Source: Patescibacteria group bacterium (GTDB taxonomy: Bacteria > Patescibacteriota > Microgenomatia > UBA8517). Taken from it: DNA of 64,000 nucleotides. The stretch is from assembly GCA_036835125.1 (NCBI GenBank), contig DAITMO010000001.1, forward strand, positions 127,508 to 191,507, given 5' to 3'. Below are positions 12,980 through 49,941 of this stretch, in pieces. The notes under the pieces were generated by a model that did not search any database, was not told where the DNA came from, and saw only the letters and a program-made list of their open reading frames with translations. The position numbers and the translations under genes were made by a program. Position 1 is the first letter of the stretch. Each line of letters starts with the position of its first letter.

Positions 12980-13927
12980 ATGCAAAACGTTTTGGTGACA
13001 GGGGGAGCGGGTTTTATTGGAAGTCATTTATGTGATCGTCTAATAGAAGACGGCTACAAAGTAATTTGTCTAGATAATCTTTTAACGGGAAGTAGGGATA
13101 ATATAAAACAGCTATTAGATAACCCAAATTTCAGGTTTATTGAAGCAGATACAACTAATTCATTAGAAGATAGGGAAGAACTTTTAGAGCTTGATTACAT
13201 ATTTCATCTTGCTTCTCCCGCTTCTCCTGTTGATTTTAAAAATTACTCAGAAGAAATACTTCTTACCAATTCTTTGGGGACTTTAAATATACTCAGACTT
13301 GCAAAGAAAACTGGAGCAAGACTTTTAGACGCTTCTACATCTGAAGCTTATGGGGATCCATTAGAACATCCTCAAAAAGAAACATATTTTGGTAATGTAA
13401 ACACCTTTGGTCCAAGAAGTTGTTATGACGAAAGTAAAAGATTTGGAGAAACAGCAACTTATGTTTATCTGAAAAAATATAACATTGATGCTAGAGTAAT
13501 TAGAATTTTTAATACTTATGGTCCAAGGATGCAGAAAGATGACGGAAGGGTTGTTTCAAACTTTATATTGGCTGCCTTAAAAAGGGAACCTTTTAAAATT
13601 GATGGGGACGGATCTCAGACTCGATCCTTTTGTTATGTAGATGATCTTGTAGATGGAATTATGAAAGTAATGTTTAGTGAGAATACGCGGGGAGAGATAT
13701 ATAACCTTGGAAATCCTGGAGAGTTTACAATAAAAGAATTAGCAGAACTTGTTAATAAACTAACTGGTGCAAATTCTGAAATGGAATTTTCAGGAACTTT
13801 TCGCGAAAACGATCCTATGAAAAGACGTCCCGATATTTCAAAAGTGAAAGAGGTAACGGGCTGGGAACCAAAAGTTAGTTTAGAGGAAGGGCTTCAAAAG
13901 ACGATTGAGTTCTACAAAAATAACTAA
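12980..13927 (+). CDS. UDP-glucuronate decarboxylase (UDP-xylose synthase)/NAD-dependent epimerase-dehydratase
   Basis: Rossmann motif VLVTGGAGFIGSHL and catalytic YxxxK (RSCYDESKRFGE). Overall similarity to the UXS/ArnA decarboxylase family. Confidence 0.75.
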   Translation: MQNVLVTGGAGFIGSHLCDRLIEDGYKVICLDNLLTGSRDNIKQLLDNPNFRFIEADTTNSLEDREELLELDYIFHLASPASPVDFKNYSEEILLTNSLGTLNILRLAKKTGARLLDASTSEAYGDPLEHPQKETYFGNVNTFGPRSCYDESKRFGETATYVYLKKYNIDARVIRIFNTYGPRMQKDDGRVVSNFILAALKREPFKIDGDGSQTRSFCYVDDLVDGIMKVMFSENTRGEIYNLGNPGEFTIKELAELVNKLTGANSEMEFSGTFRENDPMKRRPDISKVKEVTGWEPKVSLEEGLQKTIEFYKNN

Positions 13928-26847: not shown

Positions 26848-27904
26848 TCCAAAGGTAGAAGAAGTACCTCCAAAAAAGAAAAAAAATAATGTTGAAAAGA
26901 TAATTTTTCTAGTAATTTTATCTATTCTTCTTCTGTTAACATTAAGTATTGGTGCATTTTTATTTAGATATCCTGAAATCTCAAAGGCAACTTACAACTT
27001 CATAAAAGCACCAGTTTCTCAAGTTTCCTCAAACAATAACAAAATAAACATTCTTCTTATGGGTAAATCTGGGGAGAATCATGATGGAGCAGATTTGACA
27101 GATACAATGATGCTCGTCTCAATTCCCTTAAAAGATGGAGAAATAAAAACAGTGTCAATTCCAAGAGATGTTTGGGTACCAGAGTTAATGGCAAAAATTA
27201 ATTCTGCATATTATTGGGGTAAATATGGAAGCGCATATTTTTCTCTTCAAGACACAGGGGGAGGAATTTCTTTTGCAAAAAGAATTGTAGGCAAAATTAT
27301 TGGACAGCCTATTCAATATGGTGTCGTAATTGATTTCTCAGCGTTCAAAGATATTGTAGATGCGGTAGGAGGAATCAGTGTTGATGTTGAGCATCCTTTT
27401 GTAGATAACTTCTATCCAATAGAAGGTAGGGAAAATGATCTTTGTGGTGGTGACAAAAGTTTTTCCTGTCGTTATGAAACTGTGATCTTTGATTCAGGAG
27501 TCCAAACAATGGATGGAGCAACGGCTCTAAAGTTTGTTAGGTCTCGTCATGCAGAAGGAGATGAAGGTACAGATATTGCAAGAGAATCCAGACAACAGAA
27601 AGTAATTGCGGCAATCAAAGACAAAATTGTTGAACCAAAAACTTACCTATCCACTAAAAGAATTTCGGCACTTTTGACAATAGCAAACAAATATATAGAA
27701 ACTGACATTAATCTTCCAACTGTTGGAATAATTGTCAGAAAAGGATTGGAGAATATGAATAATATTTCTCAGAAAAGATTTCCTGAAAACTTGGTTGTTG
27801 TTCCAAAAACCAACCCAATATATGACAACCTATATGTTTTTATTCCAAAAGCAGGGAATGGGAATTGGGAAGAAATTCAGAAGTGGTTTACCGAAAACTT
27901 TTAA
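26828..27904 (+). CDS. LytR-CpsA-Psr (LCP) family cell-envelope polymer transferase
   Basis: TM anchor followed by the LCP core (ILLMGKSGENHDGADLTDTMMLVSI, VSIPRDVWV, ALKFVRSRH). The start MSDHSN at 26828 is used. The track start at 26777 would overlap pcrA. Confidence 0.75.
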   Translation: MSDHSNIPKVEEVPPKKKKNNVEKIIFLVILSILLLLTLSIGAFLFRYPEISKATYNFIKAPVSQVSSNNNKINILLMGKSGENHDGADLTDTMMLVSIPLKDGEIKTVSIPRDVWVPELMAKINSAYYWGKYGSAYFSLQDTGGGISFAKRIVGKIIGQPIQYGVVIDFSAFKDIVDAVGGISVDVEHPFVDNFYPIEGRENDLCGGDKSFSCRYETVIFDSGVQTMDGATALKFVRSRHAEGDEGTDIARESRQQKVIAAIKDKIVEPKTYLSTKRISALLTIANKYIETDINLPTVGIIVRKGLENMNNISQKRFPENLVVVPKTNPIYDNLYVFIPKAGNGNWEEIQKWFTENF

Positions 27905-29154
27905 AAACTTACCCATCCAAACTTGTTGATCCAAAGCACTCCCCAAAGATTGACCATTATTGATAAGAAGAGTAAAAACCAATGGTACCACCTAAGTCCA
28001 GTTTTGGTAGCTCCCTTGATCGTTAAGAACAATAGAAAAGGATAAAAATCCACAGCATATCTATAGCCAAATTGGGAGAACCCTGTTGAACCATACGAAA
28101 AGTTTATTAGTGCAATCAACAAGATTACAACCCACAATTGCTTAACAATTTTTTCTTTTATGTTTGCACAAAAAGCAAAAACAAAGGCTGGAGTTGTAAT
28201 CCAAATTGACATTCCGGCCCACGAAGGAAAAATATAAGGTACATGGTTTGTAAATATAGGTAAACCAAGTAGAAATATTTTTAGATGTTTTGGAATATAA
28301 GAAAAACTAAACTGACCATATTTGAACCACGGTTCATCAAGAATACCAGGAATTAGAGTATATCCGGTTTCCCATGGTCTTCCGAAGCGGAAATAATTAT
28401 AAAGACTATAAAGAATTACAAAAAATGATAAAGCAATCATTATTTTTAGAACACCTTTTTTATCGAATTTTGGTTTTAATAAATATGTAAACAAAATAAG
28501 ACTTGGGAGAAGTTGTAATCTTGAAAGTAAAGCGGCAGACAGTAAAAATCCAATTACAAGTGGTCGTTTTTTATCAATATACTCGAGTAACATAGCTGCA
28601 ATGAAGAAGGTGGCGGTAATTTGACCTAAATACCAAACAGATCCAGTTGAAGATAAAAACCAAATTATGTTTCCAAAAGCAGTTAGTAAACCAGTCCAAA
28701 TTGTAATTTTTTTATTTTTGCTAACTTTCCAAGAAATTAACATCATAAGAACAGTTATTCCAGCACCAACAATGTGAGCCATATATTGCTGTTCAAAATT
28801 TGAGCCAAAGAAAAATCTAAATGGGGCAATAATAACTGCCGGCATTGGTGGATTGACAAATGTGAACTTATTATTTCTAATGGTTATTAATTCACTTAGC
28901 CAGGAAGGATTTTCTTCTAAATATATTTTTCCATGGAGAAATGAATCCGAAAGTCGAGTAAAATAGTCGTACGGAGTTTTTCCTCCTGAGGTAAGTAGAT
29001 AAACAATGAAGACAAAAATAAAAGAAAAAGCAAGAAATTTCTTCATACCTAATATTGTATATGTTTTAATATTTGGGTTCTTGACTAGATTATTTCTATC
29101 TTTTTTTGGAACTCTACATTTGGACCAAGGAACTTTCGTTGCATGGAGTAACAA
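27901..29154 (-). CDS. polytopic membrane protein, GT-C-like glycosyltransferase candidate
   Basis: At least 10 TM segments. The start may be the internal MKKFLAF at 29046. It is divergent from, and overlapping, the next gene's predicted start. Confidence 0.4.
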   Translation of the reverse strand: MLLHATKVPWSKCRVPKKDRNNLVKNPNIKTYTILGMKKFLAFSFIFVFIVYLLTSGGKTPYDYFTRLSDSFLHGKIYLEENPSWLSELITIRNNKFTFVNPPMPAVIIAPFRFFFGSNFEQQYMAHIVGAGITVLMMLISWKVSKNKKITIWTGLLTAFGNIIWFLSSTGSVWYLGQITATFFIAAMLLEYIDKKRPLVIGFLLSAALLSRLQLLPSLILFTYLLKPKFDKKGVLKIMIALSFFVILYSLYNYFRFGRPWETGYTLIPGILDEPWFKYGQFSFSYIPKHLKIFLLGLPIFTNHVPYIFPSWAGMSIWITTPAFVFAFCANIKEKIVKQLWVVILLIALINFSYGSTGFSQFGYRYAVDFYPFLLFLTIKGATKTGLRWYHWFLLFLSIMVNLWGVLWINKFGWVSF

Positions 29155-31480
29155 TCTGGTGGTAGATGGATTTAAGAATTTTTACAATGGATGGAGTGAT
29201 TATTTACCAGGATATTTATATATATTGTGGTTTTTGGGGAAAATAAATCTTTTGGGTTTTATTCCACAAGTGGTGCTTTATAAACTACCCGCAATATTTT
29301 CAGATCTTTTAACTGGATTTTTGATCTATAAAATTATTAAGAAAAATCTTTCATTAAAATTAAAAAAAATATCTAATAAAAATGAATGTTTGGGACTTCT
29401 CGGAGCACTTATTTATATTTTTAACCCAGCAATTTTGGCAAATTCTTCACTTTGGGGGCAAGTTGATTCATTGACTGCTTTATCAGTAATTTCATCAATA
29501 TATTTGTTTGATAAAAAATATATTCTTTCTGCAATAGCTTTAGCAATCGGAACTTTAATAAAACCACAAGCTGCATTTGTTTTGCCAATAATCTTATATT
29601 TGTTTGTAGTAAATAAAAGAAAACTTAGTGAACTATTTTTCTATTGTTATACTGGTTTATTAGTATTCATTTTAGGTTTTATTCCTTTTTCAAATGGTAA
29701 CTTTTTTGAATTTATTATTAATAGACTTTCTTTGTCTGCTAATCAATATCAATATACTTCAGTAAACGCTTTTAACTTCTGGGGGCTTTTTGGGATGTGG
29801 AAACCAGACAATGTGGTATTTCAGTTTGGAAGTTATTTACTTGTAATTTTATTGTTTACTGTTTTACTAATTAAATTTAGAAAGAAAAAAATATCTCCTT
29901 ATACACTTGCTGTATTTATTTTCACTGCAAGCTTTATGCTCTTTACCAGAATGCATGAAAGGCATCTTTTGCCAGCGTTTGCTCCGATGGCAATTATCTT
30001 GATTGAAAACTCACTTTTTATTTTTCCATACTTAGGACTTTCAATAATATATATTTTGAATTTGCTTTATTCCTACAAGTGGATTACAGAAAATTTTATT
30101 AAAGTATATCCTGATATATTTACAAAATTTCTAGAAATATTTGGCATATTTTTCTTGGTTTTTGTCTTTTTAATAATATTAAAAAACTTTCAAATTACTT
30201 GGAAGAAATTAATATCATTTGCAAAAAATCTTGTTAATAAAATAAGTACATCAAAAACAGAAATGTCTCCAATGCCTCAAATTAAATTGTCCAATAAAAA
30301 ATCAAAAATTATTCTTCTTTTGATTCTAATATTTGCTTTTACTTCTCGAGTTTATAAATTAGGATCTCCAACAACAATGTATTTTGATGAGGTTTATCAC
30401 GCCTTCACTGCAAAAGTGATGATGGGGGAAGATAGAGCAAAAGCTTGGGAATGGTGGAACACTCCACCTGAAGGATTTGCGTATGAGTGGACTCACCCGC
30501 CTTTGGCAAAACTTGGAATGGTTATGGGAATGAGTATTTTTGGACAAAATTCATTTGGTTGGAGGATTCCAGGGGTATTACTAGGGGTAGGATCGGTATT
30601 TTTGATATATCTTTTGGCAAAAGAAATTTTTAAAGATGAAACCATAGGACTAATCTCTGCTGGGGTATTTTCACTTGATGGTTTGTCTTTGATTTTAAGC
30701 AGAATTGGTATGAATGATAGCTATCTATTATTCTTTTCACTTCTTTCAATATATTTGTTTTTAAAACAAAAAGATGCATTTTCTGCGTTATCTTTTGGTC
30801 TTGCACTTTCTTCTAAATGGTCTGCCTTGTGGGTTGTTCCAGTTCTTTTTATTCTTTGGCTGAAGCGCAGGAATAAATTTACTCCAGTTACGTTTTTGTC
30901 ATTTTTATTTTTACCAATTGCTATATATTTTTTAACCTACTTACCGATGTTTATAACAGGGCACACTATAGAGACTTGGTGGGGAATGCAAAAACAAATG
31001 TGGTGGTATCATACAAGACTTGATGCAACTCATTCTTATTCATCTCCTGCCTGGACCTGGCCATTTTTGGTTAGACCAGTATATCTTTATACAAGTGATG
31101 AAATAGGAGGATTTGTTTCAAGAATATATTTAATGGGTAATCCATTTGTTTTTTTCTCTGGATTTGCTTCAGTTTTAATGTGTGCAATATATTCAATAAT
31201 AGAGAGAAACAAAAATCTCGGGATAATTGTTTTTTCGTACCTTGTTTTCTTTGTCCCCTGGATTGCATCTCCAAGAGTTATGTTTTTATATCATTATCTT
31301 CCCTCAGTTCCATTCTTATCAATCGCAATAGCGTATGTTTTACGTAGAAATAGACGAATACTTCTTTTGTATATTGCTATTGCGGTTATATTGTTTATAT
31401 ATTTTTATCCTCATTGGACAGATATACAGATCCCTCTTTGGTTGGACAAAAGTTACTATTGGATAACAAGCTGGAGATAG
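29006..31480 (+). CDS. two-module GT-C membrane glycosyltransferase; C-terminal module is a PMT (protein O-mannosyltransferase, GT39)-like domain
   Basis: 824 aa with two TM-rich halves. The second half begins with the PMT loop-1 DE motif (MYFDEVYHAFTAKVMM ... YEWTHPPLAKL). The start at 29006 overlaps the divergent upstream gene, so the true start may be downstream. Confidence 0.6.
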   Translation: MKTKIKEKARNFFIPNIVYVLIFGFLTRLFLSFFGTLHLDQGTFVAWSNNLVVDGFKNFYNGWSDYLPGYLYILWFLGKINLLGFIPQVVLYKLPAIFSDLLTGFLIYKIIKKNLSLKLKKISNKNECLGLLGALIYIFNPAILANSSLWGQVDSLTALSVISSIYLFDKKYILSAIALAIGTLIKPQAAFVLPIILYLFVVNKRKLSELFFYCYTGLLVFILGFIPFSNGNFFEFIINRLSLSANQYQYTSVNAFNFWGLFGMWKPDNVVFQFGSYLLVILLFTVLLIKFRKKKISPYTLAVFIFTASFMLFTRMHERHLLPAFAPMAIILIENSLFIFPYLGLSIIYILNLLYSYKWITENFIKVYPDIFTKFLEIFGIFFLVFVFLIILKNFQITWKKLISFAKNLVNKISTSKTEMSPMPQIKLSNKKSKIILLLILIFAFTSRVYKLGSPTTMYFDEVYHAFTAKVMMGEDRAKAWEWWNTPPEGFAYEWTHPPLAKLGMVMGMSIFGQNSFGWRIPGVLLGVGSVFLIYLLAKEIFKDETIGLISAGVFSLDGLSLILSRIGMNDSYLLFFSLLSIYLFLKQKDAFSALSFGLALSSKWSALWVVPVLFILWLKRRNKFTPVTFLSFLFLPIAIYFLTYLPMFITGHTIETWWGMQKQMWWYHTRLDATHSYSSPAWTWPFLVRPVYLYTSDEIGGFVSRIYLMGNPFVFFSGFASVLMCAIYSIIERNKNLGIIVFSYLVFFVPWIASPRVMFLYHYLPSVPFLSIAIAYVLRRNRRILLLYIAIAVILFIYFYPHWTDIQIPLWLDKSYYWITSWR

Positions 31481-31482
31481 TT

Positions 31483-31770
31483 TCAGGCTGGTCCGAAACG
31501 GAAGTTTCCCTTCAGAATTAAGAATACCAATATTCCTAAAATAAAAATTGTGACAAGGAAGTAGGTTACAGACCATTTTCCAGATTTTGGAAAAAATTTA
31601 TCAAAAGGATAATATGAAAAATTTTCAGATTTCAACTTACCTAATGTATAAAAAGTCAGCTTGTATCCTAAATAAATTACTAGAATAAGAACTAGTACCA
31701 ATATAATTATAGAAAAATTGGAATTAACAAAATTGGTAATGTGTTTTGATAACTCAATTAGTTTATTCAC
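31483..31770 (-). CDS. small membrane protein
   Basis: 95 aa with two TM segments. It is the last gene of the minus-strand surface-protein operon. Confidence 0.35.
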   Translation of the reverse strand: MNKLIELSKHITNFVNSNFSIIILVLVLILVIYLGYKLTFYTLGKLKSENFSYYPFDKFFPKSGKWSVTYFLVTIFILGILVFLILKGNFRFGPA

Positions 31771-31777
31771 AGAATAT

Positions 31778-32305
31778 TTAGATTACTAATAAAATTGATC
31801 CGAAGAGAATGATTATTCCCAAACCAATTCCTGTAAGAGTTGGCCAACTAATCCCCGACTGAGGTAAAGCTGCAGCTGTTGCTGTTGGAGTGGCAGTTCC
31901 ACATGTGCAATCTGTATCCTCCGGACAATTTGGATTTCTGCAGTAGCCATTGTAACAGTAATATCCTGATCCACAATTAGAATTGCTTCCACAAGTACCA
32001 CCACAAGAATTTGGTTCTCCGGAGGAAGTTGGAGTTGGTGTTGGTGACGGAGTTGAAGAACCAGTTGCTGTTGGAGTAGCAGAAGGTGTGCTGGTTGGAG
32101 ATGGTGTAATAGTTGAAATTGTAAAAGACAGAGAACAACCAACTAGAGGAGTTAGAGCTTTAGGATTACTACTTGGTGCATTTGGTGCAACAGTAGTCTC
32201 TCTTAATTGATAAAGTCTGAAAGCTGTAAAAATAGCAACACCTGCCAATATAACTGTAGCAATTATTATTAAAGTTGTTCCAACTTTTCCAATAGGTTTT
32301 TTCAT
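31778..32305 (-). CDS. secreted/anchored Thr-Pro-rich protein with Cys-rich module and C-terminal LPQSG + hydrophobic tail
   Basis: N-terminal signal anchor and a TPSPTSTPSATPTATGSSTPSPTPTPTS linker. Cys module: GEPNSCGGTCGSNSNCGSGYYCYNGYCRNPNCPEDTDCTCG. It ends AAALPQSGISWPTLTGIGLGIIILFGSILLVI. Confidence 0.6.
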   Translation of the reverse strand: MKKPIGKVGTTLIIIATVILAGVAIFTAFRLYQLRETTVAPNAPSSNPKALTPLVGCSLSFTISTITPSPTSTPSATPTATGSSTPSPTPTPTSSGEPNSCGGTCGSNSNCGSGYYCYNGYCRNPNCPEDTDCTCGTATPTATAAALPQSGISWPTLTGIGLGIIILFGSILLVI

Positions 32306-32312
32306 ATTATTT

Positions 32313-33476
32313 TTAAAACCACCCTAATGTTGGATGGTGGACTTGACCTGAAATATTAAATGTAGTTGTATCACTTGGAATGGTATAGCTCTGACAGAAA
32401 TCATTTGATTCCGCCCTTTGCAATGTGGTCTCTTCATTCAGTATTCCGTTTATAGTAAATCTTGCTTTATCAAAAATTCCAGACGAAGAATAACCAGAAA
32501 CACACAAATAAATGACGTCCCCTTCTTTCAAGAGCGATCTGTCGCTTGCACTAATTAGCTCCCAACTTGAAGAATAGGTAGATATAGATGAACAATATGT
32601 TGATATAGGGGGACTTGTTGGTGGTGAAGTTGGGGGACTTGTTGGTGGTGAGGTGGGTAAAGTTGGGTCACAAAGCTCATTTGTACATCTAGTTCCATTT
32701 CCTTGATAAGTACACGCATTGGGTGTGAGACAGTAGTTTCCGGGTGCTGGATTCCTTCCAGAAGGACATATACAATTAGCGTTTCCTATGATGGGTTGTC
32801 CATATTCGGCCTTGACGTTGTAGCATTTATAAATCTTTTCGGCACCATAACCGCCACAAAAACTTCCACCTATATCATGATCATAAACACAATCCATATC
32901 GCCTAGTTGACATGTAGGTTTTGAAGCACACACACCTCCGTTACACAATCCACTACAACATTCTGCATTACTTGAGCATGATTTACTATTTGTTTTACAG
33001 CAAATACCACCGTTACAAGTACCATAACAACATTCACTTGAGTTGCTGCAGGCACCACCAATTAATACATTACAATTTCCAGCAACACAAAGTCCATCAC
33101 TACATACTCCTGAAGTACATTCTGAATTTTTTCCACATCTGCTTCCATTGGAATATGCTGCCTCTTGTTTAAACAGTTGTTTTTGCCCAATCAAATATGT
33201 ACCTGCACCCAACCCTCCCACTAATACTAAAATTCCCAAGATTGTTGCAATAATTCTTTTTGTTCCAAATTTTTTCTTTGGATTTGAAGCAATGTTGTTT
33301 GTATTAGGAACAGGAGAAGCTGTTCCAGAATCTTTGACTGGTTTATTCTCTATCTGTTCTGTTTTTTCCACATTCTGAAAATCTGCAGGCATTGGTGGCA
33401 GATCTGTTTGAGAAGCAAATGATATTCCCGGATTAGGATTATTTTGTTGTTGGTTATTTGAGTCTTGGTTGGGCAT
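32313..33476 (-). CDS. membrane-anchored Cys-rich repeat protein with (TSPP)n linker
   Basis: Q/N/P-rich N-terminus, then a TM anchor. Three knottin-like Cys repeats follow (CGKNSECTSGVCSDGLCV; CSNSSECCYGTCNGGICC; CSSNAECCSGLCNGGVC). Then TSPPTSPPTSPPTSPP and a C-terminal domain. Confidence 0.55.
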   Translation of the reverse strand: MPNQDSNNQQQNNPNPGISFASQTDLPPMPADFQNVEKTEQIENKPVKDSGTASPVPNTNNIASNPKKKFGTKRIIATILGILVLVGGLGAGTYLIGQKQLFKQEAAYSNGSRCGKNSECTSGVCSDGLCVAGNCNVLIGGACSNSSECCYGTCNGGICCKTNSKSCSSNAECCSGLCNGGVCASKPTCQLGDMDCVYDHDIGGSFCGGYGAEKIYKCYNVKAEYGQPIIGNANCICPSGRNPAPGNYCLTPNACTYQGNGTRCTNELCDPTLPTSPPTSPPTSPPTSPPISTYCSSISTYSSSWELISASDRSLLKEGDVIYLCVSGYSSSGIFDKARFTINGILNEETTLQRAESNDFCQSYTIPSDTTTFNISGQVHHPTLGWF

Positions 33477-33533
33477 GTTAATAAATATATCTATTCACTC
33501 CATTGTAGAATATGTGTCTTATTTGGTCAAAGT

Positions 33534-34331
33534 TTATATCGCCAAAAGGAGCAGAGACCCAATTATCACAATTGTTCCAATTCCCATTCCAAGGAAACTG
33601 GGCCAATTAACTCCTGACTGTGGTAATGCAGCCTGCGTTGGCGTTGGTGTTGGAGATGAACAATTACAATCTTGATTTGCAGGACAACTTGGGTTTCTGC
33701 AGTAGCCATTATAACAATAAAAATCTGTTCCACAATTAGAATTGCTTCCACAAGTACCACCACAAGAATTTGGTTCCCCTGATGATATTGGAGTTGGTGT
33801 GGCTGTTGTAGTCGCAGTTGGAGTTGATGATGGAGTGGCGGTTGGGGTAGGCTCTAGTGTTGGAGTTGGTGTTGGTTCTATAGTTGGTGTGGGTGTCGAA
33901 ACAATTTCAACCGCTGCTGGGGCATGATAACAACATATTGGCAATACAGCATCTCCCGCACTACACGTTACTCCTGACTCCTCTCCGGCTCCCATCTGGT
34001 CATCTCTTGCTGGTGTAGTCTGGCATTTTGGTGTACAGTCACAAGCTTCCTCTTCTAGTATTTGAGGTTGTTGTGTGAGAATAATACCAGCACCAATACC
34101 TCCCACAATAACAATAACTCCCAAAATAGCAGCGATGATTTTCTTCTTTTTCCCAAATTTTCCTCGTGGTTTAGCAATGATTGTGTTTGGAGAAGCAACT
34201 ACACTACTTACATTTCCACCATTTTGTAATTCTGTTGGCATTGGTGGTAAGTCTGTTTGAGAAGCAAAAGACCCTGCAGTAAGATCACTCTGTGATGTTT
34301 GTTGTTGATTTGGATTATCTTGATTGGGCAT
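33534..34331 (-). CDS. secreted/anchored Thr-Pro-rich protein with Cys-rich module and C-terminal LPQSG + hydrophobic tail (paralog of 31778..32305)
   Basis: It shares the N-terminus (MPNQD..NQQQ..SFASQTDLPPMP plus TM) with 32313..33476. It shares the Cys module (GEPNSCGGTCGSNSNCG..YCYNGYCRNP.CP) and the LPQSG tail with 31778..32305. Confidence 0.6.
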   Translation of the reverse strand: MPNQDNPNQQQTSQSDLTAGSFASQTDLPPMPTELQNGGNVSSVVASPNTIIAKPRGKFGKKKKIIAAILGVIVIVGGIGAGIILTQQPQILEEEACDCTPKCQTTPARDDQMGAGEESGVTCSAGDAVLPICCYHAPAAVEIVSTPTPTIEPTPTPTLEPTPTATPSSTPTATTTATPTPISSGEPNSCGGTCGSNSNCGTDFYCYNGYCRNPSCPANQDCNCSSPTPTPTQAALPQSGVNWPSFLGMGIGTIVIIGSLLLLAI

Positions 34332-34333
34332 AT

Positions 34334-35698
34334 TTAATTTTCAGCTTCTCTCCAGACGTAAAAACCAAAGGATACTACCCCCAATCCCACTATTAACATT
34401 AACACAGTTGGAAGCAAACTCCCAGATTTTGGAAGTGAGGATGGTGTAGCTATGAGAGTTGGAGAAGGTTTAACTGTTGGCGTTGAAGTTGCCTTTGGTG
34501 TTGCTGTCGGACTACCTGTTTTTACAGGAGTCGGAGTTGGTGTTGCTGTCTGTTTTGGTGTTGCTGTTGGAGTCGATTCAAAAGCAGGCAATTCTCCAGC
34601 TTGTACTACAAAGTTTCTGGTTATTGTGCGTGTTATTCCTGAAAGATCTATCCATGAAATAGTAATAGTGTGTTCACCTGGACTCAAATTTGAAGGAGGT
34701 GACCAACTCCAAGAACCAGTTGAAGCGACTTTTGTACTGCCTGTAATCTCCTCATCTGAGTGAACGGTAATGGTTATGTTTGTACCTTTTGGTCCATCTC
34801 CAAAAAATTCAGGAGTATCGCTAGTAATTACTTCTCCCTCAGTTATGCTCTCAAGAGTTACTTTTGAGGAGTCTGAACTAACAGAATCTGAATCAACATT
34901 AAATTTTGATTCAGAAGTGGCACTTGTTGGAAGTTCTAAATTTGCATTGGGGTTGTTCCCATCAGCAATTGGTTCAAGACTTCTAAAATCTTGATCTTTT
35001 CCAATGATTAGAGCTGGTATTGGATTTGCAGACCTTGGATAAACCTTAGCTGTTGCAATTTCTCCCGTTTCAGAAATAGCAGAGATTTCAAGAAGAGTTT
35101 TGTTTAAGTCAATTTGGGCATATGATTTCAAGTCTGTAGTGCGCACTGAACCAAGTTGTATTACAAATACCCCACTGTCAGATGTAATTGACGATATTGT
35201 ATAGCCATTAACCATAATATGAATAAGTGCTCTTTTTGATGGTTCACCCGAAGCTGTCAATATTGATCCTGATATGGGGATAGAAGGTTGACTTGTATTT
35301 ATTTTTTTACCAGTTGAAAATTGCCAAGTTGTGCCGTTATTATCAAACATTTTTCCTTCAGAGTTAATTTTGAAATAGTAGATAGTCTCCGGCTCTAATC
35401 CGGTAAGAGTAATACTATGAGTGTTATAGCCTTCCTCGTCTTCACTTTCATTTGCGACTGTTCCGACGTTTTGAGAAGTACCATATGAAACAAAACCTGT
35501 TGTTGCGTCTTCGGTAAACCAAGATACAGTAGCGGAAGAATCAGAAATTGAACCAATACGAATATTATTAGGTGTTATTGTAGGACTGGCGCCAATTCTA
35601 AATACTTGATTGTTTCTTAATAGAATAACTCCAGCAAAAACACCAAAGAAAAGAACAATGATCCCTAGTATTGTTGGTATTTTATTTCTTTTAATCAT
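34334..35698 (-). CDS. cell-surface protein with FN3-like and Ig-like domains, TP-rich stalk and LPKSG sorting-signal-like C-terminus
   Basis: Signal anchor, then an FN3/PAP-N-like domain (SATVSWFTEDATTGFVSYGTS...ETIYYFKINS). An Ig-like domain follows (GTNITITVHSDEEITGSTKV...HTITISW). Then a TPTATPKQTATPTPTP stalk. It ends LPKSGSLLPTVLMLIVGLGVVSFGFYVWREAEN, i.e. motif, TM, then a charged tail. Confidence 0.6.
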   Translation of the reverse strand: MIKRNKIPTILGIIVLFFGVFAGVILLRNNQVFRIGASPTITPNNIRIGSISDSSATVSWFTEDATTGFVSYGTSQNVGTVANESEDEEGYNTHSITLTGLEPETIYYFKINSEGKMFDNNGTTWQFSTGKKINTSQPSIPISGSILTASGEPSKRALIHIMVNGYTISSITSDSGVFVIQLGSVRTTDLKSYAQIDLNKTLLEISAISETGEIATAKVYPRSANPIPALIIGKDQDFRSLEPIADGNNPNANLELPTSATSESKFNVDSDSVSSDSSKVTLESITEGEVITSDTPEFFGDGPKGTNITITVHSDEEITGSTKVASTGSWSWSPPSNLSPGEHTITISWIDLSGITRTITRNFVVQAGELPAFESTPTATPKQTATPTPTPVKTGSPTATPKATSTPTVKPSPTLIATPSSLPKSGSLLPTVLMLIVGLGVVSFGFYVWREAEN

Positions 35699-36066
35699 AT
35701 TTGTGCACTAGGTGAGGCACTTTGAGTGGCCTCTACATTTATTGGTTCAGGTGTAATTGTTGGAATTGGAACAACCATAGTATTTGATTCTATATTAAGT
35801 GGCGGAATTTCAGAATCAGGAATAAAAATTGCAGACTCAATCAATTGAATAGATTCCAAATTAATATTTGGATCTATTGGTTTTGTAATGTTTGTAGGCA
35901 CAATTGTAGGTGGTTTAATTGTGAATGTTCTGTAAACAGACAAACTTACCCACAATAACGTAGTTAGAAGGGTGAGTATAAGTATGGAAATTGGTTTAGG
36001 GATTTTTCCCTTATTTTGATTATCTGTTTTCATATAAGTATGGGATTCTTCCCGAAATGACAGCAA
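35695..36066 (-). CDS. membrane-anchored Pro-rich protein (possible PilP-like pilus assembly component)
   Basis: 123 aa with one TM and a Pro/Ile-rich periplasmic tail. It lies immediately downstream of pilO-like. The true start may be MKTDNQ at 36033. Confidence 0.3.
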   Translation of the reverse strand: MLSFREESHTYMKTDNQNKGKIPKPISILILTLLTTLLWVSLSVYRTFTIKPPTIVPTNITKPIDPNINLESIQLIESAIFIPDSEIPPLNIESNTMVVPIPTITPEPINVEATQSASPSAQI

Positions 36067-36679
36067 TTAGTGTTTTCCCTTCGTTGGTTGTAGATGAGCT
36101 GATGGATACGTTATCAATTATCGATATTACTCTCATTCTACCCATATTTGTAATAAAATTGTTTATATTATTGTAAAATCCCCTAACATTTAATACATAA
36201 CTTACTCCCTTTGTTTCATTAGGTAAATCTATTAGTACATCTTCGTTAATGGTGGATTTTAATTGACCTTTTACAACAATTTCTTTCATTGATATTCCGA
36301 CCAAATCAACTTCATTTCTAACAGCCAATCCTTCTACCTGTTTTGCAAATAAATCTGGATTTGGTGAAGATGGAATAGCAGTATTAATTATCTCTAATAT
36401 AGGTTGGTATTGATTAACAATATTGTTAGCTTTTTTTAAATCATTTAACTTCTTATCAAGAATACTTATTACTTTCTTTTCTTCATTGATTTGTTGAACC
36501 AGGCTGATTATGGTTAAAGCTGTTGGTTTAATAGCAAACACTAAAAAGACCAATACAGCAATTATCGAAAGTACGATTTCCAAAAATGCCCTCAAGTCTG
36601 CCCTTTTTTTGTATAGCTCAGTAACATTTAAAAAAACCTCTTTATATCTTAGATAAGCTGATTTCCAATTAGATGCCAT
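36020..36679 (-). CDS. type IV pilus assembly protein PilO-like
   Basis: 219 aa. Single N-terminal TM after a short cytoplasmic segment, then a coiled coil and a ferredoxin-like C-terminal domain. It sits directly after pilN-like. Confidence 0.45.
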   Translation of the reverse strand: MASNWKSAYLRYKEVFLNVTELYKKRADLRAFLEIVLSIIAVLVFLVFAIKPTALTIISLVQQINEEKKVISILDKKLNDLKKANNIVNQYQPILEIINTAIPSSPNPDLFAKQVEGLAVRNEVDLVGISMKEIVVKGQLKSTINEDVLIDLPNETKGVSYVLNVRGFYNNINNFITNMGRMRVISIIDNVSISSSTTNEGKTLIAVISGRIPYLYENR

Positions 36680-36680
36680 G

Positions 36681-37211
36681 TTAGTATTCTATGTCTATAA
36701 CAAAATTTGTTCCTCCAAAATTACTTTCAGATGAACTCAGTTGTTTTAATTCAACTTTTTTGAAAAGATCACCTTCAAGATTATTAATATAACCACTAAT
36801 ATCAAAATCTGATAAGGAATAACCTCTGATATTAATAGATTTGTTTTCAATTACTATTCTGGATAACGTTATTGTTGTGGGTATGCTTCCAGTGATTTTG
36901 TCTAATATCTGAGTAGTATTTTGAATTTTTGCTATTTTTCCATAGGTATCGACTTTTGTTTGCATACTTCGAAATTGTTTTTCTAACTCTCCTTGAGCCA
37001 AAATTTGTCCGGTTTTGACTTTTATTATTTTGTTCAAATTTGAATTCTGAGTGTCAAGCCAAAATCTTGAGAGAAATGCAGCCATTACAACTATTTCTGT
37101 CACAATGACGATGATACGAAATGTACCCGTTGCCCATTTTAAAACACGACCAATGGTGGAAGAATTAAATTCTTCTTGAGGAAGTAAATTTATTGACTTA
37201 TTTTTGGGCAT
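36681..37211 (-). CDS. type IV pilus assembly protein PilN-like
   Basis: N-terminal INLLP motif (MPKNKSINLLPQEEF), which is the PilM-binding signature of PilN. It is followed by a single TM and a periplasmic domain. Confidence 0.55.
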   Translation of the reverse strand: MPKNKSINLLPQEEFNSSTIGRVLKWATGTFRIIVIVTEIVVMAAFLSRFWLDTQNSNLNKIIKVKTGQILAQGELEKQFRSMQTKVDTYGKIAKIQNTTQILDKITGSIPTTITLSRIVIENKSINIRGYSLSDFDISGYINNLEGDLFKKVELKQLSSSESNFGGTNFVIDIEY

Positions 37212-45496: not shown

Positions 45497-46933
45497 TTGC
45501 TTCACAAATCTAAAAATAAAATGGATAAAAATAATACAAATCAAACGCGTCCACCCATTGTAGTTGTACTTGGGCATGTTGATCATGGAAAAACAACACT
45601 CCTTGACGCAATAAGAAAAACCAATGTAACAGCAAAGGAAGCTGGTGGAATTACTCAAAAAATTGGGGCCTCTGTAGTTGAAACAAAAGAAGGCAAAAAA
45701 ATAACATTCATTGATACTCCAGGACACGCTGCTTTTACCAAGATGAGAGGAAGAGGGGCCCAAGTTGCAGATATTGCAGTTTTGGTTGTAGCCCAAGACG
45801 ATGGAGTCAAACCTCAAACAAAAGAAGCTTTGGAAATAATTAAAGAAACAGGTATTCCCTTCATTGTTGCAGGAACAAAATCTGATGTAGCAGGAGTCAG
45901 TGCCGAGAAGCTTCAAGGGGAACTTGAAAAAGAAGAAGTCTATTTTGAAGGAAGAGGAGGAAACATTCCTTTTGTCTCAGTCTCAGCAAGAAATAGTACT
46001 GGAATAACAGAACTTTTAGAAATGCTCACCCTAATGGCAGACGTTGCAGAACTTAAAGGAGATCCTAACGCCCCAGTTGAAGCAGTAGTTATTGAATCAG
46101 GAAAAGATAAAATGGGATCTACCGCCACAGTTGTTGTAAGACAGGGAAGCATAAAAGTGGGAGAGGCAGTGTTTGCAGAGGAGCTACCTTGTAAAGTTAG
46201 AGCCCTATTTGATGATAAAGGAAAGGGAATTAAGGAAGTCACTCCCGGCCTCCCTGCAGGAGTTTTTGGTTTTACTGATGTTCCAACAGTTGGGGCTACA
46301 GTTCTTTCTATGCCCCATAAAGGTGAAGAAGTTGAAAAAAAGGTAAGAGGAACATTTGATTTAAGACGTTTAAAAGACGATGAAATTCCTGTAATTATAA
46401 AAGCTGATAATGCAGGTTCCCTTGAAGCTATTATTGCTTCCCTTCCACCAAGAATTGTTGTTGTTGGTCAGGGGGTGGGAGACGTGACAGCAAGTGACAT
46501 AATTGATGCAAAAACAGGAAATGCCTATGTATTTGTATTTGAAGCAAAAATACCAAATGACATAGTTAAGCTTGCAGAAGCGGAAAAGATAAAGGTTGAA
46601 AGATTCCAAATTATTTATGAGCTCTTGCAAAAGTTGGATGAAATCCTCAAAAAAGGACAGGTTATAGAGCTTGGACACGCAGAAGTTTTAGCAAGCTTCC
46701 CATTTGATCACAAGAAGGTTGCAGGATGTAAAGTAATTGATGGAAGGTTGTCAAAAGGCGACGCACTTATTATTAAAAGAGAAGATAAAGAAATAGGCAA
46801 AGGTAAAGCAACTTCTCTTAGAAAACAAAAAACTGAAGTAGCAAGTGTAGGTCAATCAGAAGAATTTGGTGTGATAATAGATCCCCAACTTGATTTTCAG
46901 GTAGGAGATATAATAACTTCAATCTCCAAATAA
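45497..46933 (+). CDS. infB: translation initiation factor IF-2 (short form lacking N-terminal domains)
   Basis: G domain [34 protein letters not shown]-like GTKSD. The last 8 codons lie inside a duplicated segment (see findings). Confidence 0.92.
46887..46933 (+). repeat. direct repeat copy A (22-bp perfect core aacttgattttcaggtaggaga + divergent in-frame infB tail)
   Basis: The 22-bp core is identical to 49860-49881. The continuation encodes DIITSISK* for copy A and DVIVSVAR* for copy B. Confidence 0.8.
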
Positions 46934-46962
46934 TTGACTTCAAAGCCTTCCTGGCGTACACT
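46934..46962 (+). promoter_or_regulatory. candidate sigma70 promoter for DGR target gene (TTGACT, 17 nt spacer, TACACT)
   Basis: TTGACT at 46934-46939 and TACACT at 46957-46962. A short hairpin ccgcaaaagcgg at 47033-47044 and a GAAAGGAAG RBS precede the ATG at 47062. Confidence 0.45.
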
Positions 46963-47061
46963 ATGGGTCTGTACATTGAAATTTAAAGTGCGAGGGGGCC
47001 TAATACTCCAAGGTTTGGAGTAATTTTTATATCCGCAAAAGCGGAAGAAAGGAAGTGTGCG

Positions 47062-47973
47062 ATGACAACTAATAAGTTGATCACGCAAGGTCAGGTAAGG
47101 CAGATCACAGGTTTTGGGGCTGACGTAATTGAGAAGGTTCTCGATGATCTTGGGCTTGATAAAAAAGGCGCCCAGGCTGTCATCGGCCGTGGTGGTGAGT
47201 TTGGAAGTTTAATTATGCCTTCCATACTCTCTGCGCTACAGAGCCTTTCAGTTTCTGAACGGTTCAAAGATGAAGAAGTTGATTCCAGATATGGATATCT
47301 CTCCGGTTATAAACCGAAGGGTTTGAATGAACAAATGAACCAACTTCGAATCCTGTTTCCAGGCATAGGATTTTGCAATCAAGATCTGTTCACACAGATC
47401 GAGAGAGATGACGTCAAATTGCCAAAACATGCCGAAGGTTGGTTTGCCATCCCCAACTGGATGAGAAACCCGCAGATTTTTGGTACGACCTACAGTGATG
47501 CCCTTCTCAAAGTGCTTAATATGATCAAAAAAGCCAGAAACGGCAAGTTTTACAACTACCGTGAAGGTCAGATAAACGAGAAGAACATTCACCAGTCGGA
47601 CCGAACCAGGGAGTTTTGGAAAAAACTCTCAAATGATCAGGGAAATCCTGATATTTTGATTGTTCCTGCACAGTTTGGCATCCGTCACCGTGGTCGATCT
47701 GTTCGACGCGCTTGCGAAATTTTTGTCGGGAACGAATTCGGTCTTGGCGCATTTGCTGTTGGTGTTATGATCCTGACGCACCCTGAACGTCTTCAGAATT
47801 TTGACGATCTTTGGATCGACTGCGCGGGTGATGAATTTGCAGCAAATGCCGATGGCGACTGTTCGAGGGCTCCATATTTCGGGTTCGGCGATAGTGATAT
47901 CAAGGTTGGCACGGGATGGGTTGACGATGCGGATTCGGATTATGGTTCGGCATCGGGGTTCCTTCCGCAGTAA
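47062..47973 (+). CDS. DGR target (variable) protein; C-terminal variable region
   Basis: 303-aa ORF with noticeably higher GC than its surroundings. Its last about 41 codons (47847-47970) are duplicated downstream as the template repeat, with differences at TR adenines. Confidence 0.75.
   Translation: MTTNKLITQGQVRQITGFGADVIEKVLDDLGLDKKGAQAVIGRGGEFGSLIMPSILSALQSLSVSERFKDEEVDSRYGYLSGYKPKGLNEQMNQLRILFPGIGFCNQDLFTQIERDDVKLPKHAEGWFAIPNWMRNPQIFGTTYSDALLKVLNMIKKARNGKFYNYREGQINEKNIHQSDRTREFWKKLSNDQGNPDILIVPAQFGIRHRGRSVRRACEIFVGNEFGLGAFAVGVMILTHPERLQNFDDLWIDCAGDEFAANADGDCSRAPYFGFGDSDIKVGTGWVDDADSDYGSASGFLPQ
47847..47970 (+). repeat. DGR variable repeat (VR)
   Basis: 124-bp near-copy of 48358-48481. 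There are 12 mismatches, and 10 of them are A in TR to G/C in VR. Template Asn codons AAC/AAT correspond to GGC/GAT in the VR. Confidence 0.85.
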
Positions 47974-48033
47974 ATTTTGGTATTTGGATACTTGAGTCTT
48001 TTTGATTTTTTGATATCTTGTGTCCGCCAATTT

Positions 48034-48069
48034 GGGGGTTATTCGCAATGTGCAATATGAATAACCCCC
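48034..48069 (+). terminator. GC-rich hairpin (10-bp perfect stem gggggttatt/aataaccccc, 16-nt loop) followed by T-tract; terminator and/or DGR cruciform element
   Basis: The stem is at 48034-48043 and 48060-48069, followed by gttttatttctt. It lies 60 nt downstream of the target gene stop. Confidence 0.6.
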
Positions 48070-48357
48070 GTTTTATTTCTTCAAAATAATTTTGATATAC
48101 TAATATGGGTTTTGGCTAGTGAACAACAGTTTAAGAATTGTTGTCGCCAAATTCTCCTTATAAACAACCAGAATTTTAGTGATTACCGGTTTCTAAAAGT
48201 GTGTTGTACTGAGGGGAGATACTGCTTATTTCTATCTAGTGCAGATTTCTACTTTGTTAGGATGCTGCCAAATAAAATACAAGATAAAGAAGATATAAAT
48301 TTATTACAGTAAACTTCAATATCTGGTGAGAAAAGATGGATGGAAATAATATTTTGT

Positions 48358-48481
48358 TGCCGATGGCGACTTTTCGAAGGCTCCATATTTCAGGTTCAAC
48401 GATAGTGATATCAAATTTGACACGGAATGGGTTGACAATGCGAATTCGAATTATGGTTCGGCATCGGGGTTCCTTCCGAAG
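48358..48481 (+). repeat. DGR template repeat (TR)
   Basis: Noncoding copy of the VR that carries adenines at all but two mismatch positions. It lies between the target gene and the avd/RT genes. Confidence 0.85.
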
Positions 48482-48499
48482 TTTCTCCCCTGAGTGACT

Positions 48500-48868
48500 T
48501 TAGATAGTTGAACGCAACCACCCCCCTAACATACGTCCAATTTCGTCAAGTTTTTCTTGAAGATAAATATATTTATTAATATTAATTATTTTTGTGTCTT
48601 TTGCCAATCTAACCAAAATTTTTAGCATATTAAGTTTGTGACTAGTATTCTCCAATATTTCCAATTTTTTGATTTTGGAAGAAGAAGTTGTTGTCAAAAT
48701 TCCCTCTAAAATTTCTAAAGTTGTATTTTCTACCCTTTGCCAAATGGTACAACGGTCTTGTTTTGGAATCGAATTTCTAAGTTTGTGAATTTCTTTATAC
48801 ACTTCATATGTTTGTATAAAAATGGGTGTGTCAAAAAATTCCGACATAATATGAAAATTTATCTTCAA
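48500..48868 (-). CDS. avd: four-helix-bundle protein (Avd-like accessory variability determinant, TIGR02436 / 23S rRNA IVS protein family)
   Basis: 122 aa. FIQTYEVYKEIHKLRNSIPKQDRCTIWQRVENTTLEILEGI fits the four-helix-bundle family that accompanies DGR RTs. It sits between the TR and the RT on the opposite strand. Confidence 0.65.
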   Translation of the reverse strand: MKINFHIMSEFFDTPIFIQTYEVYKEIHKLRNSIPKQDRCTIWQRVENTTLEILEGILTTTSSSKIKKLEILENTSHKLNMLKILVRLAKDTKIININKYIYLQEKLDEIGRMLGGWLRSTI

Positions 48869-48891
48869 AAAGAAAATTTTCTGACAAATTC

Positions 48892-49860
48892 ATGAAAATT
48901 TATAGAAATGTCTTTGAGAAAATAGTTACTTTGGAAAACCTACTTAATGCTTGGAAAGACTTCAGTCATGATAAACGAAAGAAAAAAGATGTTCAAGGGT
49001 TTGAAATTAAACTTGAAGAAAATATTTTTGAGCTTTATAGAGAATTGAAGGCTGGAAATTATAAACATAGCTCATATAAACCTTTTTATATTCAAGACCC
49101 AAAACAGAGACTGATTCATAAAGCAAGTGTTCGAGATAGAATCGTTCATCATGCGATTTATTCAATTCTAAATCCCATTTTTGAATCTATGTTTATTGCA
49201 AATTCTTTTTCCTGCAGAGTTGGAAAAGGAACACATAAAGGAGTTGAAACTTTAAGAAATATGTTAAGAAAGGTTAGCAAAAACGATACTAGAAAATGTT
49301 TTGCTTTAAAGTGTGATATCAAGAAGTTTTTTGATAGCATTGACCACAAAATTTTAATGGAAATTTTATGTAAAAAAATTAAAGACAATAATGTTAGTGG
49401 GCTGCTATCCGAAATTGTTGAAAGTTACCACCCAAAAGGAATGGGAATTCCTATTGGCAATTTAACTTCACAGATTTTTGCAAACATTTATCTAAATGAA
49501 TTTGACCAGTTTATAAAACATAAGCTAAAAGTAAAAAATTATATTCGTTATACAGATGACTTTATTATAGTTAGCAATAACAAAAATTATTTAGAGAGTT
49601 TGATTTATCCGATAGATAATTTTTTAAAATTGAATCTTAAATTATTTCTCCATCCTCAGAAAACTTTGGTTAGAAAATATTCTCAAGGGATAGATTTTTT
49701 GGGATATGTAATTTTCCCACATTATTTAGTATTAAGAACAAAAACAAAGAAAAGGGTTTTCCAAAGGATAAATAACAAAAATCTTCCCTCATATTTAGGT
49801 GTTTTATCGCATGCGAATAGCTATGAGTTGACGAAAAGACTAATTTTCTTGGTAACTTAA
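48892..49860 (+). CDS. DGR-type reverse transcriptase
   Basis: RT motifs 1-7 are present: PKQRLIHKASVRDRIVHHA, SFSCRVGKGTHKG, KCDIKKFFDSIDH, the DGR-specific GIPIGNLTSQIFANIYLNEFD (I/LGxxxSQ), RYTDDFII (YxDD) and LHPQKT. Confidence 0.9.
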   Translation: MKIYRNVFEKIVTLENLLNAWKDFSHDKRKKKDVQGFEIKLEENIFELYRELKAGNYKHSSYKPFYIQDPKQRLIHKASVRDRIVHHAIYSILNPIFESMFIANSFSCRVGKGTHKGVETLRNMLRKVSKNDTRKCFALKCDIKKFFDSIDHKILMEILCKKIKDNNVSGLLSEIVESYHPKGMGIPIGNLTSQIFANIYLNEFDQFIKHKLKVKNYIRYTDDFIIVSNNKNYLESLIYPIDNFLKLNLKLFLHPQKTLVRKYSQGIDFLGYVIFPHYLVLRTKTKKRVFQRINNKNLPSYLGVLSHANSYELTKRLIFLVT

Positions 49861-49906
49861 ACTTGATTTTCAGGTAGGAGACGTGATAGTATCGGTCGCT
49901 AGGTAA
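49860..49906 (+). repeat. direct repeat copy B (22-bp core + alternative in-frame infB 3' end, DVIVSVAR*)
   Basis: Identical to 46887-46908 over 22 bp. The next 25 nt are about 50% identical to copy A, yet they keep the IF-2 reading frame and a stop codon. Confidence 0.8.
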
Positions 49907-49941
49907 TTAGGTTTGTAATCTGCCTCATTTTTAATATATAA

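Follow-up and report, generated by a model that had tools for sequence, protein, structure and literature searches.

Three adjacent genes at positions 31,778 to 34,331 of a 64,000-nucleotide stretch of contig DAITMO010000001.1, from a Patescibacteria group bacterium, encode Cys-rich proteins that share modules with one another and are here called A, B and C; the window denotes the whole stretch at its full length. We consider it fairly probable (roughly 0.6) that A, B and C belong to the cell envelope as extra-cytoplasmic proteins rich in disulfides and that they constitute the recombination-diversified, variable part of an operon conserved in Woesebacteria. A preliminary description of this DNA had regarded the genes as recently duplicated or recombined surface antigens; the feature is real and this evolutionary inference was broadly correct, whereas identity and recency were overstated. 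The three open reading frames (ORFs) had been placed exactly. All are intact and on the minus strand, and their parts, including transmembrane (TM) segments and Pro/Thr-rich (PT) linkers, are located as follows:

31778..32305, minus strand: protein A, 175 amino acids (aa), intact ORF
31781-31867, minus strand: LPQSG tail of A
31901-32005, minus strand: 8-Cys module of A, preceded by a PT linker
32219-32284, minus strand: TM segment of A in a leader of type L1, followed by RLYQLR..VAPNAPSSNPKA
32313..33476, minus strand: protein B, 387 aa, intact ORF
32316-32609, minus strand: conserved C-terminal beta-sandwich of B
32607-32654, minus strand: perfect (TSPP)4 linker of B
33087-33137, 32997-33050 and 32928-32978, minus strand: three 4-Cys repeats of B, followed by a further Cys-rich stretch
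33198-33254, minus strand: TM segment of B, with a Q/N-rich cytoplasmic leader containing DLPPMP
33534..34331, minus strand: protein C, 265 aa, intact ORF, present or absent between strains
33537-33626, minus strand: LPQSG tail of C
33660-33764, minus strand: 8-Cys module of C
34074-34139, minus strand: TM segment of C with a B-type leader (L2), followed by a short Cys-rich middle and a PT linker

The C-terminal halves of A and C are 65% identical over 114 aa (E=3e-57). This similarity covers the Cys module and the LPQSG tail, both of which had been proposed as common to the two proteins; the module contains eight Cys residues, not six to eight, in the spacing C-x3-C-x5-C-x5-C-x4-C-x4-C-x5-C-x-C. 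B and C are related at the other end, where their N-terminal ~150 residues are 39% identical over 158 aa (E=7e-24). Here the Q/N-rich N-terminus, which contains SFASQTDLPPMP, and the TM anchor are shared, as had been described. The three 4-Cys repeats and the perfect (TSPP)4 linker of B were likewise located, and B is without a sorting tail. The picture of modular paralogues that have leader, linker, Cys module and tail in common holds, and the minimal architecture of A is the commonest one in the family.

The combination of modules is not a local product: leaders, Cys module and tail are found lineage-wide, in hundreds of Microgenomates proteins. With A as query, phmmer retrieved 867 cluster representatives at E<=1e-3 from 1.84 billion representatives. 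At E<=0.001, 193 homologues were found with C and 133 with B, almost all of them from Woesebacteria/Microgenomates. Across the family, the 8-Cys module lies 10-20 residues before the C-terminal motif and its Cys spacing is fixed in 111 of 115 instances. Its passengers include DUF11/CLIPPER, cohesin, VWA, CARDB and DsbA domains, and nine proteins carry two copies of the module. Two classes of tail occur in the same family, one with the pattern LPxSG-(T)xWPT-GxGxG...GSLLLAL and no basic residues, and one of the classical type LPKTG...FKKFKLI. The leaders fall into two types as well, L1 as in A (consensus MK..KGK.GT...LAGVAIFTA.RLYQLR...VAPN.PSS.P.A) and L2 as in B and C (MPNQ...DLPP.P...PKKKFG.KRIIATILG...GAG..L.QQ.Q). 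Members of the B family combine an L2 leader with a hypervariable Cys-rich centre and a conserved C-terminal domain of ~95 aa that ends in HHxTLGWF; among the first 40 members listed, the total number of Cys residues per protein ranges from 3 to 35.

Conservation extends to the order of the genes. A GTDB-wide ORF/phmmer gene survey yielded 61 species-level loci, mostly titled Woesebacteria or Microgenomates, and in ~55 of the 61 the order is PilN-PilO-s-D-B-A-(t)-PMT(convergent)-X, usually with one B and one A per locus. Gene C is absent at this position from all GTDB loci surveyed and from the related contigs L004 and L005. In other genomes, C-type proteins with an L2-like leader, the module and an IPxSG tail are encoded at a different conserved locus near cysS. 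Gene C was also considered as a unique local chimera; this was rejected, because its architecture is widespread, including the locus near cysS and the interval between D and B in the separate lineage L075.

In two proteins, P0105 and P0118, a PT linker connects a DsbA/thioredoxin domain with the same 8-Cys module and with a TM anchor, and in locus L071 a VKOR gene adjoins a C-type gene. The DsbA fusions and the VKOR neighbour give a hint of a dedicated extracytoplasmic system that forms disulfides in the Cys-rich proteins.

At the DNA level, two pairs of repeats connect the three genes:

31842..32041, strand not assigned: direct repeat copy 1, in A; blastn match to copy 2 of 80.1% over 201 nucleotides (nt), E=4e-38
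33601..33800, strand not assigned: direct repeat copy 2, in C; the same blastn match
33365..33419, strand not assigned: short repeat at the 5' end of B; 84% over 56 nt with 34213-34268, E=3e-9
34213..34268, strand not assigned: short repeat at the 5' end of C; blastn partner of 33365-33419

An identity of about 90% had been claimed between 31930-32040 and 33690-33800. This stands for a core of ~100 nt (31930-32040 versus 33689-33799, register 1759), which is 89% identical, but not for the whole match with its 80% over 201 nt. The same figure for the 5' gene ends (33390-33476 versus 34240-34331) was too high, since these are 71% identical and their best local match reaches 84% over 56 nt. Low complexity was rejected as the source of the similarity: the 12-nt periodic repeats of PT type are only 60-73% alike, and the strongest identity falls on the codons of the Cys module.

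How much of this identity exceeds the constraint on the protein was assessed by a codon test, in which the use of the same codon at identical residues is compared with the expectation from the codon usage of the window. The true A orthologue of L005, a genome that is ~75% identical, served as a second reference. The expected share of same codons is ~44% (31.7 of 73 sites as the total expectation), which corresponds to ~12 in the core of the module (residues 97-127 of A). A and C use the same codon at 24 of 27 sites in this core, with 91% nt identity, compared with 16 of 29 sites and 83% nt for A and its L005 orthologue. The binomial tail, computed for at least 25 of 28 sites at p=0.44, is ~8e-7. 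Outside the core the relation is reversed: in the tail, A and C have the same codon at only 5 of 20 sites and 59% nt identity, below the 68% of the L005 orthologue, and the divergence of their tail and PT regions, at 59-68% nt identity, has reached saturation. The ~100-nt island of excess identity within saturated flanks argues for short-tract gene conversion instead of a recent duplication, and the A/C core looks like a gene-conversion tract of ~100 nt. The "recent duplication" of the preliminary description does not hold for these genes, because identity in the tail is lower than between orthologues of a ~75% identical genome; a recent duplication of the whole segment from A to C was rejected for the same saturation of the tail and PT regions.

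It is unlikely that purifying selection on peptide motifs, together with AT-biased codon usage, explains the DNA similarity with no conversion or recombination between the paralogues. Such an explanation is the better one for the 5' ends of B and C, where 32 same-codon sites against 28 expected represent no excess and the similarity is accounted for because protein conservation and codon bias suffice; the extreme conservation of the module peptide across the family speaks for it too. It fails for the A/C core: same codons are twice as frequent there as expected, and their share also exceeds that between true A orthologues, a pair whose flanks have diverged less than those of A and C. Modules of other genomes with ~70% aa identity are only 61-66% identical in nt, and the junction of the insertion or deletion in L004 lies exactly in the common 5' ends.

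The exact C protein is encoded on contigs from three other assemblies that are 99.99-100% identical to the window. Contig L001, from another sample, carries the full D-C-B-A order at 99.99%, and L003 carries D-C-B. Because separate assemblies reproduce it at 99.99-100%, the arrangement is not an assembly artefact. A chimera in which gene C arose from reads misjoined across the repeats that it has in common with A and B is accordingly highly improbable, even though two of the three related contigs (L002 and L003) end inside the locus. The ORF of C is intact, with a middle region that is unique and a diverged tail of its own; at 80-89% over at most 200 nt, the repeats are too weak to mislead an assembler, and the independent lineage L075 has the same four-gene layout. 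L002 ends in the 5' region of B, with 46 terminal nt (L002:11033-11078) that are unmatched in the window, and L003 ends at the start of A; these breaks are consistent with co-existing strain variants or with repeat-induced fragmentation. The exact sequence of B is absent from a collection of 15 billion proteins that does contain the A, C and D proteins of this contig. The 387-aa B gene is called on contigs L001 and L003, and its absence from the collection is probably an indexing gap.

More diverged relatives show how the locus differs between strains. The Logan contig L004 is ~97% identical in the flanks, has the order D-B'-A and is without gene C. The segment in which it departs from the window was delimited as follows:

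32600..34523, strand not assigned: strain-variable segment relative to L004, from sliding identity and alignment

Divergence begins abruptly at ~34523, in the PT-linker codons of D, and ends at ~32600, in the TSPP-linker codons of B. The last ~200 nt of D are 73-77% identical to L004, compared with ~97% upstream, and a 100% identical island covers the TM codons of B inside the divergent segment. The first 33 nt of B' match the 5' end of C at 31 of 33 positions and that of B at only 24 of 33, with B sequence thereafter, so that the first 33 nt of C (34299-34331) are kept as the 5' end of B'. This hybrid 5' end points to an unequal crossover between the common 5' ends, or to the reciprocal insertion. 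In addition, L004 has 164 unrelated nt with a single repeat in place of the centre of B (33150-32665, 485 nt, comprising the three repeats and the further Cys-rich stretch). The strain comparison bears out the suggestion that the common DNA is a substrate for recombination, by the loss of C, the hybrid 5' end of B' and the exchanged centre of B.

Other lineages display related rearrangements. The more distant relative L005 has D-B-A only. L075 has its own D-C-B-A array with a C-type gene, which is 85.5% identical over 138 nt to its B in the TM region and 86.9% over 84 nt to its A in the tail. In L009 and L037 the B-A pair is duplicated in tandem, as [B A][B A], and the identity is mosaic; the two B genes of L009, for example, are 93% identical over their first 344 nt. 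Judged from the variants L004, L075, L009 and L037, recombination among common modules is recurrent at this locus. Cassette variation of the pilE/pilS type does not describe it, since all paralogues are complete ORFs with start, leader and stop in one operon, and no truncated silent copies were found in the 31-35 kb region.

No Pfam or NCBIfam model matches A, B or C at threshold, and the domains were examined by structure prediction. AlphaFold2 (AF2) with family alignments predicts the Cys module of C as a small hairpin with a predicted local distance difference test score (pLDDT) of 89-94; both TM helices of C are confident, and a helix is predicted at 243-264, in the hydrophobic segment after the LPQSG motif. 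In B, residues 290-387 reach a pLDDT of 95-98; confidence is moderate in the three repeats and poor in the rest of the centre. For the C-terminal domain of B, the only Foldseek matches in the PDB were generic ones to Ig-like, RhoGDI and Wzt-CBD structures (E>=0.01), and the B repeats gave only sub-threshold conotoxin and Dickkopf matches. The family profile of the 8-Cys module matches the DPY module of Dumpy (PDB 1OIG, E=0.004) as well as kiwellin and knottins, and Pfam DPY (PF21164) is matched by 15 of 34 module instances at E<=1, with a best E of 1.2e-5; the A and C modules of the window themselves have no DPY match at E<=10. All 22 Foldseek PDB matches of the AF2 module are cystine-knot peptides, but their E values of 3.4-9.6 are non-significant; squash inhibitors superimpose with a root-mean-square deviation of 0.6-0.8 A over 20-24 residues. 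The term "knottin-like", used in the preliminary description, is to be read as a resemblance only, and for the predicted module a knottin/DPY-like character is a supported resemblance and not a demonstrated membership. The core C-x2-N-S-[ND]-C-x5-C-x-N-G-x-C-R-N-P aligns with DPY (1OIG), which is a rigid spacer in an extracellular fibre protein. The window module differs in being bacterial, in having eight Cys residues (DPY has four, knottins six) and in forming part of a larger anchored protein. Convergence or a very distant relationship is the probable basis of the likeness.

The closest known parallel is provided by the sortase-anchored LPXTG proteins of Gram-positive bacteria, such as MSCRAMMs, the Alp/Rib family and internalins. 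Like them, the proteins described here combine a putative N-terminal export signal, a passenger, a Pro/Thr-rich linker, an LPx[T/S]G motif and a hydrophobic segment, and both include tandem paralogues that recombine via common modules and vary between strains. Different from LPXTG proteins, the LPQSG/LPKSG motif leads into a conserved (T/V)xWP(T/S) with a Gly-rich helix that lacks a basic tail, and directly before the motif lies an 8-Cys module, putatively disulfide-bonded; in Gram-positive LPXTG proteins, Cys residues are typically few. C furthermore has a long cytoplasmic N-terminal extension, the LPXTG hidden Markov model is not satisfied and no sortase gene is linked. Variants of the motif in the family are LPxSG, LPxTG, LPxAG and IPxTG, and the hydrophobic segment that follows it in sortase substrates is present in A and C with 20-21 residues. 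The LPxSG tail, which departs from a strict LPXTG signal by its missing basic end and by Ser in place of Thr, may represent a distinct variant of sorting signal.

Several observations weigh against the proposal that A, B and C are recombination-diversified envelope proteins. A and C carry LPQSG, and the neighbouring protein D carries LPKSG, with Ser where Thr is usual in LPXTG. Neither A nor C is matched by the LPXTG model TIGR01167, and the score of D, 10.3 bits, falls short of its cutoff of 15.9. The C-terminal ends are not basic (...GSILLVI in A and ...GSLLLLAI in C); D ends in WREAEN with one Arg. No sortase gene was found in the 64-kb window by a TLxTC motif search and Pfam scans, and the designation as surface antigens went beyond the data at this point. 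The single TLxTC-type match, TVTSC at ~14817, lies in a 498-aa ORF that scores as a family-2 glycosyltransferase. The cytoplasmic extensions of C and B, with 60-70 aa, are atypical of signal peptides, and the knottin and DPY similarities are sub-threshold. Gene conversion is deduced from a single ~100-nt patch in one genome and from analogous patches in L075, and constraint on the nucleotide sequence of the ~100-nt patch is a formally admissible alternative. On the other side, another Microgenomates genome is reported to encode a sortase (PMC7143001).

Other sorting routes were considered and rejected. A lipoprotein signal in A is contradicted by the position of its LVGC, ~25 residues past the TM helix, and by its lack of conservation in homologues. 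A to D are without a G/FTLIE-type motif, which argues against a prepilin-type leader. For a sortase-polymerised pilin, the candidate nucleophile, a Lys in a PKA motif after the L1 leader, is not conserved in the family consensus.

The genes A, B and C are embedded in a series of tightly spaced minus-strand ORFs that follows rpsT and comprises, in this order, PilN-like, PilO-like, "s", D, C, B, A and "t", in a window that is AT-rich with 30-42% GC. A gene for a protein O-mannosyltransferase (PMT) of the GT-C type faces it:

36681..37211, minus strand: PilN-like bitopic protein, operon gene 1; Pfam PF05137, E=9.6e-10, 38.8 bits against a cutoff of 22.8
36020..36679, minus strand: PilO-like bitopic protein; Pfam PF04350, E=0.0017, 18.9 bits, below the cutoff of 22
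35695..36066, minus strand: small protein "s", ~110 aa, N-terminally anchored, between PilO and D in most loci
34334..35698, minus strand: protein D, with an N-terminal TM segment, fn3-like and Ig-like (Big_13) domains and a PT linker; Pfam PF16656 (E=2e-11) and PF19077 (E=1.3e-8)
34337-34435, minus strand: tail of D, LPKSG, hydrophobic segment and WREAEN (motif location)
31483..31770, minus strand: small protein "t", 95 aa with two TM segments, last operon gene, after A in many loci
29006..31480, plus strand: PMT-family (GT-C) protein O-mannosyltransferase-like gene, converging on the operon; Pfam PF02366, PF16192 and PF13231

Pfam domains, gene adjacency and an N-terminal TM segment identify the first two genes as pilN and pilO; the PilO score itself is below the cutoff, and the adjacency is conserved. 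The PilN-like gene keeps its position in ~60 related loci, and the PilO-like gene adjoins it in all surveyed loci. Neither "s" nor "t" is matched in Pfam and NCBIfam scans. The PilN-like protein carries SINLLP at its N-terminus, which we take to be the PilM-binding motif. The pilN and pilO genes stand directly after rpsT without pilM, and the same surface-protein genes then follow in ~60 species of Woesebacteria/Microgenomates. One type IV pilus (T4P) locus described for Microgenomates lists PilM, not PilN or PilO (PMC7143001), and the pilus alignment genes appear to be split between two loci.

This association raises the possibility that D, B, A and C are T4P accessory proteins, which would form a wall-spanning collar or conduit at the operon positions of PilP/PilQ in diderms. 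In each of ~60 loci these genes form a tightly packed series downstream of pilN-pilO, D, B and A are single-copy per genome in most species, which fits a stoichiometric structural role, and the N-terminus of PilN with its presumed PilM-binding motif, together with the published pilus locus, is compatible with an operon that supplies PilN and PilO. We nevertheless regard this as doubtful, because "s" and D have no similarity to PilP or PilQ, hypervariable centres and the presence or absence of a gene between 97%-identical strains would be unusual for a core machine part, and at other loci this combination of Cys module and tail is found on many unrelated passenger domains. In T4P alignment operons (pilMNOPQ in diderms, pilMNO in Gram-positives), pilN and pilO homologues likewise lead the operon. 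Unlike these, the window has no pilM and no PilP/PilQ homologue was found in it, and the downstream genes encode putative sortase-signal, Cys-rich proteins in contrast to described T4P operons. A related but further-reaching idea is improbable: that the conserved operon and its facing PMT gene encode an undescribed envelope structure of Woesebacteria, PilN/PilO-scaffolded, wall-anchored, O-glycosylated and disulfide-locked, which replaces the PilP/PilQ conduit in these monoderm cells of the Candidate Phyla Radiation (CPR). Such a structure would rely on a bacterial family of knottin-like domains and on a sorting signal that is new (LPxSG-xxWPT-Gly-rich helix, no basic tail). If it were true, the exposed parts (the centre of B and gene C) would be swapped by recombination, which would change interactions with hosts or phages.

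The convergent PMT gene is a conserved neighbour in most surveyed loci, and the PMT-like enzyme is probably a candidate for glycosylating the PT linkers. A comparable situation exists in actinobacterial Pmt O-mannosylation of secreted Thr/Pro-rich proteins, in that a PMT GT-C gene lies beside genes for proteins with Thr/Pro/Ser linkers; different from the actinobacterial system, the link here is only by gene neighbourhood. The surroundings are rich in genes for envelope glycosylation (27901-29154, 11439-12947, 9056-11070 and 13924-15414, all on the minus strand). Among these neighbours are a conserved 417-aa multi-TM protein that adjoins the PMT gene and has no Pfam match, a second PMT_2-like protein, a GT4-family phosphosugar transferase, a UbiA prenyltransferase and a GT2 enzyme. 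This suggests a larger surface-glycan island around the operon.

The same window contains a diversity-generating retroelement (DGR) at 46887-49908, with a target gene at 47062-47973, a variable repeat (VR) at 47847-47971, a template repeat (TR) at 48358-48482 and a reverse transcriptase gene at 48892-49860. The VR comprises 125 nt at the 3' end of a 303-aa gene without a Pfam match and is 90% identical to the TR, which lies upstream of the RVT_1 reverse transcriptase; TR adenines account for 11 of the 13 differences between the two. A 49-nt direct repeat (46887-46935 and 49860-49908, 76%) represents the 3' end of infB, duplicated on both sides of the cassette, and suggests that the DGR cassette was inserted at the infB 3' end. 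Diversification of A to C by this DGR was rejected, because the TR matches only 47847-47971 and not genes A to C.

The preferred explanation, in which A, B and C are the recombining part of a conserved envelope operon, would work as follows. The operon pilN-pilO-s-D-[C]-B-A-t, which faces a PMT-type glycosyltransferase and is conserved across Candidatus Woesebacteria, would encode proteins that are inserted into the membrane via N-terminal hydrophobic leaders of two conserved types and are exported and exposed on the surface. In D, C and A, LPxSG with its ~22-residue hydrophobic segment would serve as a sortase-type signal for processing by a sortase whose gene lies elsewhere in the genome. 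The compact 8-Cys module, 10-15 residues upstream of LPxSG, would form a rigid base that is locked by disulfides, and the Thr/Pro linkers would act as extended stalks, probably O-glycosylated by the neighbouring PMT enzyme. B would be held by its N-terminal anchor and present its hypervariable Cys-rich centre together with the conserved Ig-like C-terminal domain. Common coding sequence for leader, linker, module and tail would allow homologous recombination between paralogues and between strains: a gene-conversion tract of ~100 nt would homogenise the modules of A and C, unequal crossover in the common first ~33 nt of C and B would gain or lose gene C, and the central cassette of B would be swapped between the conserved TM-coding and linker-coding DNA. 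As an outcome, the exposed surface would be diverse at the strain level and the anchoring parts would be constant. Diversifying selection may act on the exposed parts, with a benefit such as host attachment or phage evasion. The locus is thus probably a variant of a known theme, namely modular, recombining surface proteins that are probably sorted by sortase, assembled from unannotated CPR-specific parts.

CPR bacteria (Patescibacteria) are thought to live attached to other microbes, and, to our knowledge, their surface proteins other than type IV pili are almost entirely uncharacterised. In essentially all Woesebacteria loci surveyed, the conserved and easily recognised operon links pilN/pilO with the genes of three putative surface proteins. 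The two leaders, the knottin/DPY-like 8-Cys module and the atypical sortase-like tail are without a Pfam or NCBIfam model, and new models could annotate hundreds of proteins now termed hypothetical. Disulfide-rich extracellular modules in a bacterium with a minimal genome also raise the question of how exported proteins are oxidised. Finally, the locus offers an example of natural remodelling at the strain level, by gene gain and loss, cassette swaps and short gene conversion, with breakpoints in linker and leader codons, and such remodelling is the pattern expected of determinants of host range or of phage receptors.

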